Positions 1 through 40,617 of a stretch of 40,617 nt of DNA are shown in pieces. How positions within the stretch are numbered: position 1 is the stretch's first letter; each line of letters starts with the position of its first letter. The translations under genes and the position numbers were made by a program. Below the pieces are notes generated by a model. The model saw only the letters and a program-made list of their open reading frames with translations, made no database searches and was not told where the DNA came from. Source of the DNA: a virus; the IMG/VR virus record IMGVR_UViG_3300033074_001163, positions 1 through 40,617 of that record; one strand, written 5' to 3'.

Positions 1-181
1 ACTTACCAACTTTTAGCCACTTACCAACTTCTAGCGACTTACCAACTTCTAGCGACTTACCAACTTTTAGCGACTCACCAACTTCTAGCCGCTCACCAAC
101 TTTTAGCCACTCACCAACTTCTAGCGACTCACCAACTTCTAGCCGCTCACCAACTTTTAGCCACTCACCAACTTCTAGCGA
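1..181. repeat. 18-bp tandem repeat array, 10 units (ACTYACCAACTTYTAGCS). It continues the array at 40003..40617.
   Basis: Units are in phase every 18 nt from position 1. Only unit positions 1, 4, 13 and 18 vary. Confidence 0.95.
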
Positions 182-20842: not shown

Positions 20843-20864
20843 TGTATAATTAAAATAAAAAAGG
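20843..20864 (+). promoter_or_regulatory. Class A promoter-leader box upstream of the portal gene
   Basis: TGTATAATTAAAATAAAAAAGG. Confidence 0.55.
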
Positions 20865-20872
20865 TTAATTAT

Positions 20873-30697: not shown

Positions 30698-30720
30698 TGC
30701 TATAATTAAAACAAAAAAGG
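30698..30720 (+). promoter_or_regulatory. Class A promoter-leader box
   Basis: TGCTATAATTAAAACAAAAAAGG. Confidence 0.55.
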
Positions 30721-31737: not shown

Positions 31738-31762
31738 TGTTATATAATAAAAATAAAAAGGA
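31738..31762 (+). promoter_or_regulatory. Class A promoter-leader box
   Basis: TGTTATATAATAAAAATAAAAAGGA. Confidence 0.6.
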
Positions 31763-32119: not shown

Positions 32120-32574
32120 AAAATGATAACTCTTTATTTGTAGCTTATGAAAAAAACTTACAGCAATTCAAGGATTCAGTTGTAAAAGCTGGAATACTTG
32201 CAAAAGATGGAAGTCAAAATCATAGCGAGGGTATTACAGTATTTCAAATTGGAATGATACACGAGTTCGGAGTACCTGAAAAAAACACACCTCGTAGAAG
32301 TTTTATAAGAGTACCTATTGAGAATAATATAAAAGAGATAACTAAGCTAATTGAAAACAATCATAAATTGGTTAGTGAAAATGCTATGAGTGCAAAAGTT
32401 GCATTAGATAGAATAGGAATAATGGCTCAAAATACAATTAAAGAGTCATTTAGAAATAACGATTGGAAGCCTAATAGTAGGGCAACAGTAAAAAGAAAAG
32501 GAAGTAGCAAACCTTTAATAGACACTGGGCAATTAATAGGCTCAATTAGTTATATAGTAGAAAAGGAAAGTTAA
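32116..32574 (+). CDS. Virion morphogenesis / head-tail joining protein (HK97 gp10 or Mu G-like)
   Basis: KRKGSSKPLIDTGQLIGSISY motif. Confidence 0.5.
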   Translation: MKNDNSLFVAYEKNLQQFKDSVVKAGILAKDGSQNHSEGITVFQIGMIHEFGVPEKNTPRRSFIRVPIENNIKEITKLIENNHKLVSENAMSAKVALDRIGIMAQNTIKESFRNNDWKPNSRATVKRKGSSKPLIDTGQLIGSISYIVEKES

Positions 32575-32894
32575 TGTTACCAAATCTTAGTCAAGTAGTA
32601 AACAATTTTAGTCAAACAGTAACGCTAAAAAAAACAACTCAAACGTTAGTAAATTATAAGCCAGTTAATACGATTGTAGAATCGCAAATCAAAGCTACTG
32701 TACAAGTTGCAAGTGATGAAACATTAAAAGTAAATGGATTAGATAATAGTAAATCTTACTTTACTATTCATAGCACAAGTGCTTTAAAGGTTAATGATAT
32801 AGTGGTTTATAAGGGTAAAAATTTAAAAGTAATTACGATTAGAGACAATTCGGATTATGGATTTTATAAAGCAATAGGGGAGCAGATAATATAA
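32574..32894 (+). CDS. Putative neck / head-closure protein
   Basis: 106 aa, beta-rich, in the position after the connector genes. Confidence 0.4.
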   Translation: MLPNLSQVVNNFSQTVTLKKTTQTLVNYKPVNTIVESQIKATVQVASDETLKVNGLDNSKSYFTIHSTSALKVNDIVVYKGKNLKVITIRDNSDYGFYKAIGEQII

Positions 32895-32898
32895 AAAA

Positions 32899-32986
32899 TG
32901 GAGGAAGATAAGGGATTCGAACCCTTGGAGGTTTTACCCTCAATAATTTAGCAAACTATCTTATTAAGCCACTCTAACAATCTTCC
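32899..32986 (-). tRNA. trnS: tRNA-Ser(GCU), type II with a long variable arm and an encoded CCA
   Basis: Acceptor GGAAGAT/ATCTTCC. D region AGUGG. Anticodon stem ATAGT/ATTAT with loop TTGCTAA. Variable arm GAGG-GTAAAA-CCTC. T arm AAGGG-TTCGAAT-CCCTT. Confidence 0.9.
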
Positions 32987-32992
32987 TAAATT

Positions 32993-33184
32993 TTATTTAT
33001 AGCCTTACTGATTTTAACAGTGATGTAGATAGGCGTGTAGCGACGCCTTGTTTTACTTCTTATCCAATAGCCATACCCAAACAGGGCAGCTCAGGTCTTG
33101 CCCGCACCACAGGTACTATGCTCTTAGTACCGAACAAGTTCTCTATCATCTGATTACATACCTAGTATGTGAAGCTATAAATAA
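32993..33184 (-). ncRNA. Unclassified structured RNA candidate of about 190 nt. The strand is not proven; minus is preferred because of likely co-transcription with the tRNA.
   Basis: An 11-bp closing helix pairs 32993-33003 with 33174-33184. Hairpins pair 33032-36 with 33043-47, 33084-89 with 33098-103, 33112-18 with 33125-31, and 33156-61 with 33165-70. A long-range helix pairs TTGTT 33048-52 with AACAA 33133-37. The region is GC-enriched and has no ORF. Confidence 0.5.
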
Positions 33185-33233
33185 CAATGCAATTTTACAT
33201 TATTAAATATTAATTTAGCCTTTATCTATTAGC

Positions 33234-33253
33234 TATAATAAAAATAAAAAAGG
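33234..33253 (+). promoter_or_regulatory. Class A promoter-leader box
   Basis: TATAATAAAAATAAAAAAGG. Confidence 0.6.
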
Positions 33254-33260
33254 TTTTTTT

Positions 33261-33743
33261 ATGATAAACATTCAAGTAGCAGATTTTACAAAAGCATTAA
33301 TGAATGATGAAAATTTAATTATCATTCTAGGGCGTGAAAATTTTGAAAATGTGGATTTTACTCAAGATATTATTTTGATTGACTCCTTGACTCCTGCAAG
33401 AAATATAAGTGCAACAGATAGTTACAACAGTACAGATGAAATACAAACATTTACAACTTATTTTAACCAATTATTTACTTTAGATTTTTACGGAGATAAT
33501 GCCTATGATAATGCTAATAAATTCATAGCTTTATTAAGAAGTGAAAAAGCTAATTGGTATTTAAAAGATTATAAACTATCAATGTTGAATGTTAATAGTA
33601 TGATTGATTTAAAAGACTTATTAGGTACTGATTATACAAATAGGTATCAAGTTGAAGTTAGTGTTAATTACTTTGTTAATGTTGATATTGATACGCTTAG
33701 AATTGATAGTGTGGAGTGGTCTATTCCTTTGATTGAGGAATAG
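33261..33743 (+). CDS. Putative tail terminator / neck protein
   Basis: 160 aa, upstream of the sheath gene. No family motif recognised. Confidence 0.35.
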   Translation: MINIQVADFTKALMNDENLIIILGRENFENVDFTQDIILIDSLTPARNISATDSYNSTDEIQTFTTYFNQLFTLDFYGDNAYDNANKFIALLRSEKANWYLKDYKLSMLNVNSMIDLKDLLGTDYTNRYQVEVSVNYFVNVDIDTLRIDSVEWSIPLIEE

Positions 33744-36270: not shown

Positions 36271-36281
36271 CCTATTTTAGA

Positions 36282-36304
36282 TATAATAAAAATAAAAAAA
36301 GGAG
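36282..36304 (+). promoter_or_regulatory. Class A promoter-leader box
   Basis: TATAATAAAAATAAAAAAAGGAG. Confidence 0.6.
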
Positions 36305-39751: not shown

Positions 39752-40617
39752 TTATTGTTCATTGTTAGGCTCAATATACTTTTCATTCGGACAAGCTAAG
39801 ATAAAATCTTTGTATTTATGCCAAAAGTTTAAAGCTTTTTGACCTTCCATTTTTTCTATTTGTTCATCTGTAAAGTTAGCCCATTCTTCTTTTGTGTGAA
39901 GCTGACAACCTAATTTTATATAACCTCCCCATATTTGACATAAATAAGTAAAACAAGTTATATTTATACTCATTAAAGATTTTATTCCATAAGAAGAAAG
40001 CCACTTACCAACTTCTAGCGACTTACCAACTTTTAGCCACTTACCAACTTCTAGCCACTCACCAACTTCTAGCGACTTACCAACTTCTAGCGACTCACCA
40101 ACTTCTAGCCACTTACCAACTTCTAGCGACTTACCAACTTCTAGCCACTTACCAACTTTTAGCCACTTACCAACTTCTAGCGACTTACCAACTTCTAGCG
40201 ACTTACCAACTTTTAGCGACTCACCAACTTCTAGCCGCTCACCAACTTTTAGCCACTCACCAACTTCTAGCGACTTACCAACTTTTAGCCACTTACCAAC
40301 TTCTAGCGACTTACCAACTTCTAGCGACTTACCAACTTTTAGCGACTCACCAACTTCTAGCCGCTCACCAACTTTTAGCCACTCACCAACTTCTAGCGAC
40401 TTACCAACTTTTAGCCACTTACCAACTTCTAGCGACTCACCAACTTCTAGCCGCTCACCAACTTTTAGCCACTCACCAACTTCTAGCCACTTACCAACTT
40501 TTAGCCACTTACCAACTTCTAGCGACTTACCAACTTCTAGCGACTTACCAACTTTTAGCGACTCACCAACTTCTAGCCGCTCACCAACTTTTAGCCACTC
40601 ACCAACTTCTAGCGACT
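39752..40617 (-). CDS. Hexapeptide-repeat protein: repeat core plus C-terminal domain. The start lies outside this end of the window and continues at 1..325.
   Basis: The frame of track ORF 39752..39973 stays open upstream (LEVGKW-LSSYGIKSL-MSINIT) and through all 34 units to the window edge. Units encode L-[EK]-V-G-[KE]-[SWR]. Confidence 0.7.
   Translation of the reverse strand, partial: SLEVGEWLKVGERLEVGESLKVGKSLEVGKSLEVGKWLKVGKWLEVGEWLKVGERLEVGESLEVGKWLKVGKSLEVGEWLKVGERLEVGESLKVGKSLEVGKSLEVGKWLKVGKSLEVGEWLKVGERLEVGESLKVGKSLEVGKSLEVGKWLKVGKWLEVGKSLEVGKWLEVGESLEVGKSLEVGEWLEVGKWLKVGKSLEVGKWLSSYGIKSLMSINITCFTYLCQIWGGYIKLGCQLHTKEEWANFTDEQIEKMEGQKALNFWHKYKDFILACPNEKYIEPNNEQ
40003..40617. repeat. 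18-bp tandem repeat array, 34.2 units, with a 126-bp (7-unit) higher-order repeat
   Basis: Units are in phase from 40003. The 7-unit block recurs at 40147, 40273 and 40489, and at window position 1. Confidence 0.95.

Follow-up and report, generated by a model that had tools for sequence, protein, structure and literature searches.

What fills the gap between two virion-structure genes of a phage, when the gap holds a transfer RNA (tRNA) gene on the opposite strand and, beside it, a block with no evident protein-coding content? The question is raised by one junction in the IMG/VR virus record IMGVR_UViG_3300033074_001163, all 40,617 nts of which (the window) were analysed. The answer reached here is that the minus strand at 32987–33199, immediately 5′ of a tRNA-Ser(GCU) gene, very probably specifies a stable non-coding RNA of ~200 nts which belongs to a widespread family and which, to judge from sequence comparison, would be matured by tRNA enzymes and act in trans. 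The family, named here the UAAUCAG/GUAAAAC-core RNA, is large and occurs in phages and prophages of many bacterial phyla. It appears to be new, being described by no Rfam 15 model, genome annotation or literature that was found.

The tRNA gene itself (minus strand 32899–32986) is of class II with an encoded CCA, and ARAGORN and Rfam (RF00005, 49.5 bits against a gathering score of 29) agree on it, as they do with the first-pass annotation of the locus, which was made from the letters of the sequence. That annotation had also remarked that the adjacent block was richer in guanine and cytosine (GC) than the genome and free of open reading frames (ORFs). The GC content is 43.5% at 33004–33173 and 49.5% at 33030–33140 against 28.8% for the window, with the core of the block at the 98.7th percentile among 170-nt windows, and the block is ORF-free in practice, the only ORFs overlapping it being one of 52 amino acids (aa) with a TTG start (33048–33206, plus strand) and one of 29 aa. 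The perfect 11-bp closing helix that had been read by hand is real: a repeat search returns it as an inverted repeat (32993–33003 with 33174–33184), and it grows to 13 bp (32993–33006 with 33172–33184) with one U-G pair. Six nts (32987–32992) separate it from the tRNA. The fold energy of the block exceeds that of shuffled sequences modestly, with z = −2.7 on the minus strand and −3.3 on the plus strand. Since single-sequence folding is only moderately above shuffles, the case was made from homologues.

A 1.3-kb query against phages gave tRNA matches only, an exact 24-mer of the GC-rich hairpin had no match in IMG/VR, and with the tRNA T-arm as anchor 17 tRNA clusters were found, the block being in none of them. 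The block alone, with blastn in distant mode, matched Achromobacter phage JWDelta (71% identity over 59% of the query, E-value 1e-9 against 2.3 Gb). At 87–94% identity over 32–46 nts, blastn matches were to the E. coli phages CUS-3, IME10, Huey and Jgk1, the Acinetobacter phages SR and NL, and the Pseudomonas phages M1 and D6; two Bacillus plasmids matched the block at 88%. A strict motif scan of IMG/VR yielded 57 loci and a looser one more than 119. Bacterial representatives, at one genome per species, gave 13 matches, 12 of them with the full architecture, from at least five phyla (Phaeospirillum, Beijerinckiaceae, a Clostridium metagenome-assembled genome (MAG), Enterococcus, Lachnospiraceae, Gordoniibacillus, a Thermotogae MAG, Dyadobacter, a gammaproteobacterial MAG and Rhodanobacter). 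The hosts of the homologues, which are carried by unrelated phages and prophages, thereby include Enterobacteria, Acinetobacter, Pseudomonas, Achromobacter, Bacillus, Clostridia, Enterococcus, Bacteroidota, Thermotogae and Alphaproteobacteria. Among 5426 complete E. coli genomes, 117 have the full E. coli version, which is annotated in none of them; strain S10 (NZ_CP010229) has the element at 3070034–3070314.

Beneath the homologous matches, annotation consists of nothing beyond an occasional ‘hypothetical protein’. Such a protein is called across the element in locus L172 (1433–1897), Huey, Meifeng and other GenBank records, in M1 on the opposite strand, and in D6 a ‘tRNA-OTHER’ adjoins the element. 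These calls are probably annotation artefacts of an unrecognised RNA.

In the RNA sense the core runs as UAAUCAG, the 5′ strand of helix P2, GAGAA, helix P3 with a variable domain, P4 (a hairpin whose size varies), A-AGUAAAAC, hairpin D (GAGGCG..CGCCU), AUC, and the 3′ strand of P2. The motifs UAAUCAG, GAGAA, GUAAAAC and CGCCUAUC are linked by covarying helices, and the single strands that join P2, P3, P4 and hairpin D (UAAUCAG, GAGAA, A-AGUAAAAC and CUAUC) are near-invariant. Motif order may be as in the window or circularly permuted, and the smallest natural versions, in Beijerinckiaceae, are ~100 nts. The window belongs to the family by these features: the 5′ motifs UAAUCAG and GAGAA stand at 33150–33156 and 33139–33143, and the 3′ block GUAAAAC-RAGGCG...CGCCUAUC at 33028–33056. 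P2 can form with 6 bp plus GA:UC and one bulged A, and P3 can form with 8 bp.

A covariance model, R1, was built from 15 sequences, the window excluded, with only P2, GA:UC and hairpin D annotated. Its sole match in the window is at 33156–33020 on the minus strand (95.6 bits, E-value 5e-17, model positions 1–162, which is full length). It recovers the non-seed loci L180, L141, L171, L181, L158 and L183 at 46–71 bits and 50 of 51 new IMG/VR loci at 30–105 bits, while passing over L187, the single chance pattern match. For the four outer pairs of P2 and GA:UC, every one of the 26 sequences (26 lineages) was scored: pairing is 98%, and each pair occurs in several types; the P2/GA:UC covariation score is above that of all 500 column shuffles, and slid controls are 25–56% paired. 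GA:UC becomes GG:CC in two lineages and AA:UU in one. For the full P2, pairing is 97.8% and 95.2%, with 24 and 32 double-change cells, in two sub-alignments (bulge and no-bulge) sorted by eye. P3, with its partner at 33097–33104, is 97.5% paired with 13 double-change cells. Covariation in homologues, which the first-pass annotation had named as a check, is accordingly present in P2, GA:UC and P3, and its claim of a discrete multi-helix RNA of ~190 nts tied to a tRNA is borne out by the homologues, their compensatory changes and the held-out model match. The strand, which it had left open, is now settled: because of the strand of the model match, the co-orientation of homologues with neighbouring tRNAs and late genes, and the G-U pairs in covarying helices, which the opposite strand would turn into A-C mismatches, the RNA strand in the window is shown to be minus.

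The same G-U pairs bear on the reading of the block as a DNA-level element, be it a miniature inverted-repeat transposable element (MITE) with 11-bp inverted repeats, a recombination site or a plus-strand intrinsic terminator. The terminal inverted repeat and the placing of the block in an insertion hot spot would suit this, as would the plus strand at 33031–33058, where hairpin D followed by UUGUUUUACUU makes the region's only terminator-like site. However, the compensatory changes include G-U pairs workable on one strand only, unpaired segments and long-range helices are conserved, and the co-orientation of the family with transcription elsewhere puts the terminator reading on the non-transcribed strand. 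Nor is a target-site duplication visible: there is none at 32987–92 and 33185–90, and the MITE candidate, despite its inverted repeat, is single copy in the window. A DNA-level element is highly improbable, though a terminator effect on the plus strand could be a side effect. The insertion may in this way also terminate the upstream structural transcript, which would account for a promoter cassette after the insertion (below).

Not every helix is simple. The long-range helix first proposed, TTGTT at 33048–52 with AACAA at 33133–37, did not survive comparison, as it is not conserved and most homologues have AAAACGAGG there. The 5′ strand of P3 has an alternative partner at 33059–33067 which is 95.6% paired and also covaries. 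The two mutually exclusive pairings both covary in ten lineages, and in minimal and permuted forms only the first is found. They may represent a conformational switch, a folding intermediate or an intermolecular contact. These alternative helices (s5:p1 and s5:p2) are one attraction of taking the element for a ligand-sensing, riboswitch-like cis element controlling downstream genes, such as lambdoid lysis genes. In lambdoid and P22-like prophages the element is between the antiterminator gene Q and the holin gene S, in the pR′-tR′ late leader and upstream of the holin, and the conservation of its junction across phyla is aptamer-like. Against this, the second helix is missing from minimal and permuted forms, there is no consistent downstream gene family, many copies are within tRNA clusters, an encoded CCA on a tRNA-like scaffold speaks for a stable, processed RNA, and in the window the element runs antisense to the structural operon, with a tRNA, not an ORF, after it. 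A cis-acting switch is thus quite unlikely.

The scaffolds just referred to are a striking feature of the family's packaging. In many members, and in all the enterobacterial ones, the core replaces the anticodon arm of a tRNA-like structure, with an acceptor-like helix made from both ends, a D-arm-like hairpin before UAAUCAG and a T-arm after P2. The enterobacterial copies examined encode a CCA, as does L158; the Firmicute and Bacteroidota copies read do not. Circularly permuted versions, in Pseudomonas phage D6 and the bacterial loci L185 and L175, have P2 closed by a loop and their ends at P3, and in D6 and L185 the 3′ end of an aberrant tRNA-like gene is immediately followed by the element. 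In at least six lineages (L181, L229, L238, L198, L205/L201 and L212) ARAGORN or Rfam calls a tRNA inside the variable domain; in L181 (5556–5664) the nested tRNA is complete. After tRNA processing, such forms would be two-piece RNAs held by P2 and P3. The core sequence is kept while its attachment varies (by P2, by P3 or none), which argues that the scaffold is a vehicle for processing and stability.

In the N4-like phage JWDelta (L109, 1358–1742, minus strand) there is a two-piece transfer-messenger RNA (tmRNA) gene, unannotated in the record, whose intervening ~215 nts are the homologue of the window RNA. Closed by a 13-bp helix of its own, the JWDelta element occupies the intervening segment of this permuted gene (RF04321, 95.8 bits), with the acceptor-piece CCA on one side and the 5′ GGGG of the coding piece on the other. 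Intervening segments of permuted tmRNA genes are excised by tRNA-processing enzymes (PMC11915505).

Could the block then be what is left of a tRNA cluster, or of a tmRNA gene, after decay? It does have a T-arm-like hairpin and an acceptor-like closing helix, and its JWDelta homologue is inside a permuted tmRNA gene. However, that homologue is only in the excised intervening segment, no tRNA or tmRNA model matches over the block, and the core is 87–94% identical in short stretches between phages of different phyla, as expected of selection and not of decay. Because of this conservation and the covariation, there is next to no likelihood of its being a remnant.

The scaffold is also found without the core. 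In HK620 (L188, 1190–1310) and IME207 (L189, 1200–1350), where the core is not present, the enterobacterial scaffold carries different, shorter inserts; its parts are an acceptor helix, the hairpin UGCGCAGGCUGAUGCGC and the T-arm GCCGGAGAUCAGCGCCGGC, with a CCA in HK620. The same scaffold carries the core in CUS-3 and Huey. An E. coli query matched 177 phage records in all, many of which have the 5′ part of the scaffold. This suggests a natural tRNA scaffold family with exchangeable cargo.

In the window the scaffold is reduced. Read 5′ to 3′ on the minus strand, the RNA begins with the P1 5′ strand UUAUUUAUAGCUU (33172–33184), which in the repeat search and minimum-free-energy (MFE) folds pairs with 32993–33006; P1 is the counterpart of the acceptor-like helix of scaffolded members. 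Hairpin A (33156–33170; 6 bp, loop UAG) is directly 5′ of UAAUCAG, the position of the D-arm-like hairpin, where all scaffolded members read by eye have a hairpin of unrelated sequence. UAAUCAG (33150–33156) is at the start of the covariance-model match, and its positions A3, U4 and C5 are invariant across 26 lineages in alignment A2. The P2 5′ strand GAUGAUA, with its one bulged A (33144–33150), has its covarying partner at 33022–33027, and in the GAGAA that follows (33139–33143) GA pairs with UC at 33028–33029. The P3 5′ strand CUUGUUCG (33131–33138), paired by RNAalifold and with the two covarying partners given above, leads into hairpin B (33112–33130), a variable hairpin within P3 that was read by eye; a hairpin of different sequence was similarly read at its site in JWDelta, L176 and L146, and RNAalifold does not predict it. 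The P3 3′ strand CGGGCAAG (33097–33104; RNAalifold and covariation) is inside the conserved GCGGGCAAGAC. The P4 region (33064–33095) is a type-A variable domain, of the kind common to the window, JWDelta and the Clostridium MAG, and corresponds to RNAalifold columns 73–83 and 110–119 of alignment A1, with weaker support as it comes from six sequences only.

Beyond P4 is the conserved joining strand AAGAAGUAAAAC (33050–33061), whose GUAAAAC is invariant in alignment A2, an invariance partly forced by the search pattern although the motif was first found pattern-free by blastn. Hairpin D (33031–33048), AGGCGU-CGCUAC-ACGCCU, has a variable loop and an invariant stem, the latter again partly forced by the pattern. 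UC and the P2 3′ strand UACAUC (33022–33029), identified by covariation, are followed by a T-arm-like hairpin (33007–33021) of 4 bp with the 7-nt loop UUAAAAU. At this position L131 and L167 have the canonical or near-canonical GGUUCGAAUCC (in L167, GGUUCGAUUCC), and a Bacillus plasmid copy has UUAAAAU. The P1 3′ strand AAGGCUAUAAAUAA (32993–33006; repeat search and MFE fold) and the 6-nt spacer AAUUUA to the tRNA (32987–32992) complete the map. The local hairpins that the first-pass annotation had read are thus family hairpins A, B and D and the T-arm-like hairpin.

Association with tRNAs is not confined to the window, where it consists of the tRNA-Ser 6 nts downstream, the T-arm-like hairpin and the closing helix. 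A same-strand tRNA is within 200 nts, or nested or overlapping, in 21 of 39 further distinct elements. L216, a Firmicute-like prophage, has the window order, the element and then tRNA-Ser(GCU), and the 3′ halves of the two tRNAs are nearly identical; tRNA-Ser(GCU) is ~100 nts upstream of the element in the L191/L196/L199 group and in the Lachnospiraceae locus L180. In sister prophages of the lambdoid and P22-like carriers, tRNA-Asn and tRNA-Thr are in the same Q–S slot, and in HK620 the corresponding scaffold is within the annotated leader from pR′ to the terminator. The position 6 nts upstream of a tRNA on the same strand, and its recurrence in L216, might be taken to mean that the RNA is a mere structured 5′ leader of pre-tRNA-Ser, functionless once the tRNA is released. 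Such a leader has far less need of sequence conservation than is seen, and the core is found elsewhere apart from any adjacent tRNA (for instance in E. coli prophages), after tRNAs instead of before them, within a tmRNA gene, and carried by a tRNA-like scaffold of its own. Because of this distribution the leader explanation is very unlikely.

No protein family is present within ~4 kb of the element in three or more of 27 lineages, according to an all-against-all ORF comparison, and the loci tested have no protein similarity to the window. With no recurrent neighbour protein, and with carriers that are unrelated genomes, the RNA appears to move as a small module. Two other RNAs are nearby in individual loci: RAGATH-18 (L176, 2543–2614), ~1 kb from the element in the Clostridium locus, and int-alpA (L180, 6513–6581), ~260 nts from it in the Lachnospiraceae locus; both are small phage-associated RNAs of unknown function.

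How the RNA came to be in the window is evident from its relatives. Exact-protein look-ups of window proteins found only an identical Logan contig, and the comparison was made with 10 close relatives from IMG/VR and metagenomes that have 85–93% aa identity in the two flanking genes. These genes are, in the window, one for a 106-aa structural or neck-region protein (32574–32894; PHROG ‘head protein’) and the tail-terminator gene (33261–33743). In seven of the 10 (L001, L002, L003, L005, L106, L107 and L108) the flanking genes overlap by 4 nts, with no intergenic DNA and no tRNA. As these seven lack the RNA-tRNA stretch, the comparison shows 32895–33260 of the window to be a 366-nt insertion comprising RNA, tRNA and promoter cassette, that is, an accessory ‘moron’ cassette. 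Being without the element, the close relatives contribute no covariation, but they reveal the insertion. In L004 and L105 other minus-strand cargo, one or two small ORFs, is at the same junction. The neck-gene/tail-terminator junction (L004, 2060–2500; L105, 1447–2000) is a hot spot for accessory cargo: a 106-aa minus-strand ORF in L004, and minus-strand ORFs of 61 aa (CxxC-rich) and 95 aa in L105, for all of which Pfam gave no match.

With these insertions, that of the window shares only its last 55 nts, at 91% identity, and this cassette is in all three variants. Its plus strand (33205–33260) is a putative promoter/ribosome-binding-site cassette that would restart expression of the tail-terminator gene. 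The TATAATAAAAATAAAAAAGG part recurs upstream of five other plus-strand window genes; the TATAATAAAAATAAAAAAGG(T) sites directly before plus-strand gene starts are at 33234–33255, 403–424, 20845–20866, 30699–30720, 31743–31759 and 36277–36299, and a phage promoter/ribosome-binding-site cassette is what the motif probably represents. On the minus strand, 18 nts past the shared ATTAATTTA cassette, is TGTAAAAT (33199–33192), and at the same distance L004 and L105 have TGTTAAAAT, which stands upstream of their minus-strand cargo ORFs. From this equal spacing before different cargo we infer a minus-strand promoter with TGTAAAAT as its −10-like element. The predicted start, ~7 nts downstream of it (~33185), is the first base of the closing helix.

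The proposed course of events is as follows. RNA and tRNA-Ser(GCU) would have arrived as a 366-nt cassette, splitting two translationally coupled virion-structure genes. Transcription from the TGTAAAAT promoter would pass through both, and RNase P, because of its established role at tRNA 5′ ends, would be expected to cut at 32986/32987, forming the 3′ end of the RNA and releasing it. The 13-bp terminal helix and the T-arm-like hairpin would protect its ends. Co-transcription with the tRNA and release by RNase P had both been suggested at the outset; the TGTAAAAT/TGTTAAAAT spacing and the direct abutting of family members elsewhere on tRNA and tmRNA processing sites now add support, while the steps themselves, release included, keep the status of proposals. 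In the released RNA the compact multi-helix junction would be the functional unit, with the core as modular cargo.

What would such an RNA do? The near-invariance of the joining strands across phyla points to a defined fold and to a partner for it that is either conserved or shared horizontally. The guess we favour, and hold tentatively, is that the core binds or sequesters a host factor, or one of a mobile defence system, that is directed at tRNA or associated with translation; the chief alternatives to this are catalysis and the binding of a small ligand. Possible too, though more doubtful, is that the junction is a new functional fold carried on natural tRNA scaffolds: it might be catalytic (a ribozyme), or act as aptamer or decoy towards a partner shared universally. 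Such a partner could belong to the tRNA/translation machinery or to mobile anti-phage defence, there as a factor or as its signalling molecule. Were the new-fold proposal true, the mutually exclusive covarying helices would be a built-in conformational switch, and phage tRNA clusters would hold an unrecognised class of effector RNAs.

Taken as a catalyst outright (self-cleaving, ligating or otherwise), the junction would have tRNA contexts that reflect RNA processing or modification of tRNA-like ends. The clustering of near-invariant unpaired nucleotides at a multi-helix junction across phyla would be in keeping with this, as would one guide-like strand in two mutually exclusive helices, the start of the permuted element directly at a tRNA-like 3′ end, and the natural circular permutation (D6, L185, L175) and two-piece nested-tRNA versions, which are typical of small ribozymes. 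However, RNase P, RNase Z or exonucleases account for every boundary, no conserved cleavage-site context was identified, cleavage is unneeded in the scaffolded forms and in the window, and no Rfam ribozyme family was found at the thresholds searched (E-value ≤ 10 for the window and E. coli, gathering scores elsewhere). A ribozyme is therefore unlikely, and the binding or sequestering of a factor is still the preferred function.

Comparison with known RNAs was extensive. Rfam 15 gave nothing at E-value ≤ 10 over the block in the window, in keeping with the first-pass view that it matched no known family, and likewise nothing over the E. coli copy; over the CUS-3 and Acinetobacter loci there was nothing at E-value ≤ 0.1, and over the element in 17 further loci nothing at gathering scores. 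Only in JWDelta does a match, to tmRNA_permuted, span the element, and it does so as an unaligned insertion. In the window and 20 homologous loci all that Rfam returned was tRNAs, RAGATH-18, int-alpA and the JWDelta tmRNA. No description of the family was found in the literature by motif strings or keywords.

The closest known kind is represented by T4 species 1 (rnaC) and species 2 (rnaD), small stable RNAs from a tRNA cluster and on the tRNA strand. The 3′ end of rnaC is a canonical T-arm plus an acceptor-like strand, so that it too is a tRNA-scaffolded passenger of a tRNA operon, and T4 stable RNAs are established to mature together with tRNAs by RNase P. The T4 RNAs are without the UAAUCAG, GAGAA, GUAAAAC core: R1, run on the T4 tRNA region with filters off, had a best E-value of 2.9 and no match over rnaC or rnaD.

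In design the closest analogue is tmRNA, a tRNA-like domain in which a large domain replaces the anticodon arm. The engineered tRNA scaffold that Ponchon and Dardel reportedly devised for recombinant RNAs in E. coli is of the same plan, a structured RNA in place of the anticodon arm being processed and stabilised like a tRNA; the phage forms are natural, and by this analogy enterobacterial phages appear to use the arrangement naturally. Both tmRNA and the present family have circularly permuted gene forms, those of tmRNA being processed by tRNA enzymes (PMC11915505). The element is not tmRNA itself. The tmRNA models (RF00023, RF04321, RF01849–51) gave no match at E-value ≤ 10 in the window; for tmRNA there was likewise none in the E. 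coli copy at that threshold, and none in Acinetobacter at E-value ≤ 0.1; the acceptor-like helices read have no G3:U70, P1 of the window being a 13-bp A/U-rich helix without it; no tag reading frame was found; and ARAGORN, run on the window, L110 and L111, called no tmRNA in any of them. In JWDelta it is the element that is cut out of the tmRNA precursor.

YrlA, like this RNA, is modular, with a tRNA-like module and a second one, and some Y-RNA-like RNAs are phage-encoded. The initial suggestion of a Y-RNA-like RNA nevertheless fails, as no YrlA match was returned by Rfam over the element, no protein such as Rsr is a recurrent neighbour, and the topology is opposite: the ends of YrlA close the Ro-binding stem, whereas here both ends close the acceptor-like helix. 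Theta ribozymes, which are hepatitis delta virus (HDV)-like, also abut phage tRNA genes, and permuted members of the present family begin at a tRNA-like 3′ end. Theta ribozymes are, however, double pseudoknots downstream of tRNAs, and here a nested multi-helix junction is predicted and is upstream of the tRNA in the window.

Other candidates were set aside on more particular grounds. AAGAUGUAAAAC is loosely like the J8/7 consensus of group I introns (RF00028), but there is no Intron_gpI match in any locus searched (at E-value ≤ 10, E-value ≤ 0.1 or gathering score, according to the locus) and there are no exons; with the core removed from scaffolded members, no anticodon arm remains. Many members have AGUA/GAA, which brings a sarcin-ricin/loop-E mimic to mind, but conservation does not extend to the A preceding GUA. 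In type-B variable domains GGUGAGACCGCG is T-box-like, but there is no T-box match. For signal recognition particle RNA, 6S RNA and RNase P RNA there was no Rfam match at E-value ≤ 10 in the window (32800–33350) or the E. coli homologue, nor a resemblance by eye, and no model of a known self-cleaving ribozyme (hammerhead, twister, HDV-like and others) matched at the thresholds already given. As for a retron, the inverted repeat is present and none of the 20 window ORFs scanned, which are part of the window's ORFs, encodes a reverse transcriptase.

Several points weigh against the reading of the block as a stable, tRNA-enzyme-matured, trans-acting RNA of a new and near-invariant family. The RNA and its structure are known here from comparison of sequences. 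The pattern by which most members were found prescribes GUAAAAC, AGGCG and CGCCUA and so in part forces their invariance, and more divergent members are outside the pattern-based sample. Sorting of the P2 sub-alignments by eye biases them towards structure (the four outer pairs are free of this bias), and since both P3 alternatives covary the junction topology is not settled. The minus-strand promoter is deduced from one conserved octamer, a generic sigma-70 promoter scan not having reported the TGTAAAAT element. The scaffold of the window copy is weak (a P1 of 13 bp instead of 7–9, a T-stem of 4 bp, no D-loop GG and no CCA), so its maturation may differ from that of scaffolded members. The family may, moreover, already be listed, unnamed, in a catalogue of 10,006 anonymous candidate phage RNAs (PMC10690425).

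If the family is real, a deeply conserved structured RNA has been overlooked in well-studied genomes, being unannotated in 2% of complete E. coli genomes, in phages CUS-3 and IME10 and in Acinetobacter and Pseudomonas phages. The ~90% identity of its junction strands between phages of Gram-positive and Gram-negative bacteria is at the level of riboswitch aptamers and ribozyme cores, which implies a defined task. The role of stable non-tRNA RNAs in phage tRNA clusters, open since T4 species 1 and 2, becomes testable, with E. coli prophages and phage Huey as tractable carriers. Phages seem to use tRNA-like scaffolds as interchangeable vehicles for RNA cargo, and the cargo tolerates circular permutation and splitting by nested tRNAs. 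The element would also account for ‘empty’ gaps and for the spurious ‘hypothetical protein’ and ‘tRNA-OTHER’ calls in phage genomes.

Taken whole, the window is a myovirus-like genome of low GC content, among whose genes are those for terminase, portal, sheath and tape measure. Its terminase is closest to those of Nitratiruptor phages (48% identity), and a Campylobacterota host is possible on this weak indication from sequence. Both ends of the window (1–179 and 39999–40617) consist of the same 18-nt tandem repeat, consensus AGCCACTTACCAACTTCT, in ~10 and ~34 copies respectively, at ~90% match and ~48% GC; the window was probably cut within one long AGCCACTTACCAACTTCT array of a circular or terminally redundant genome.

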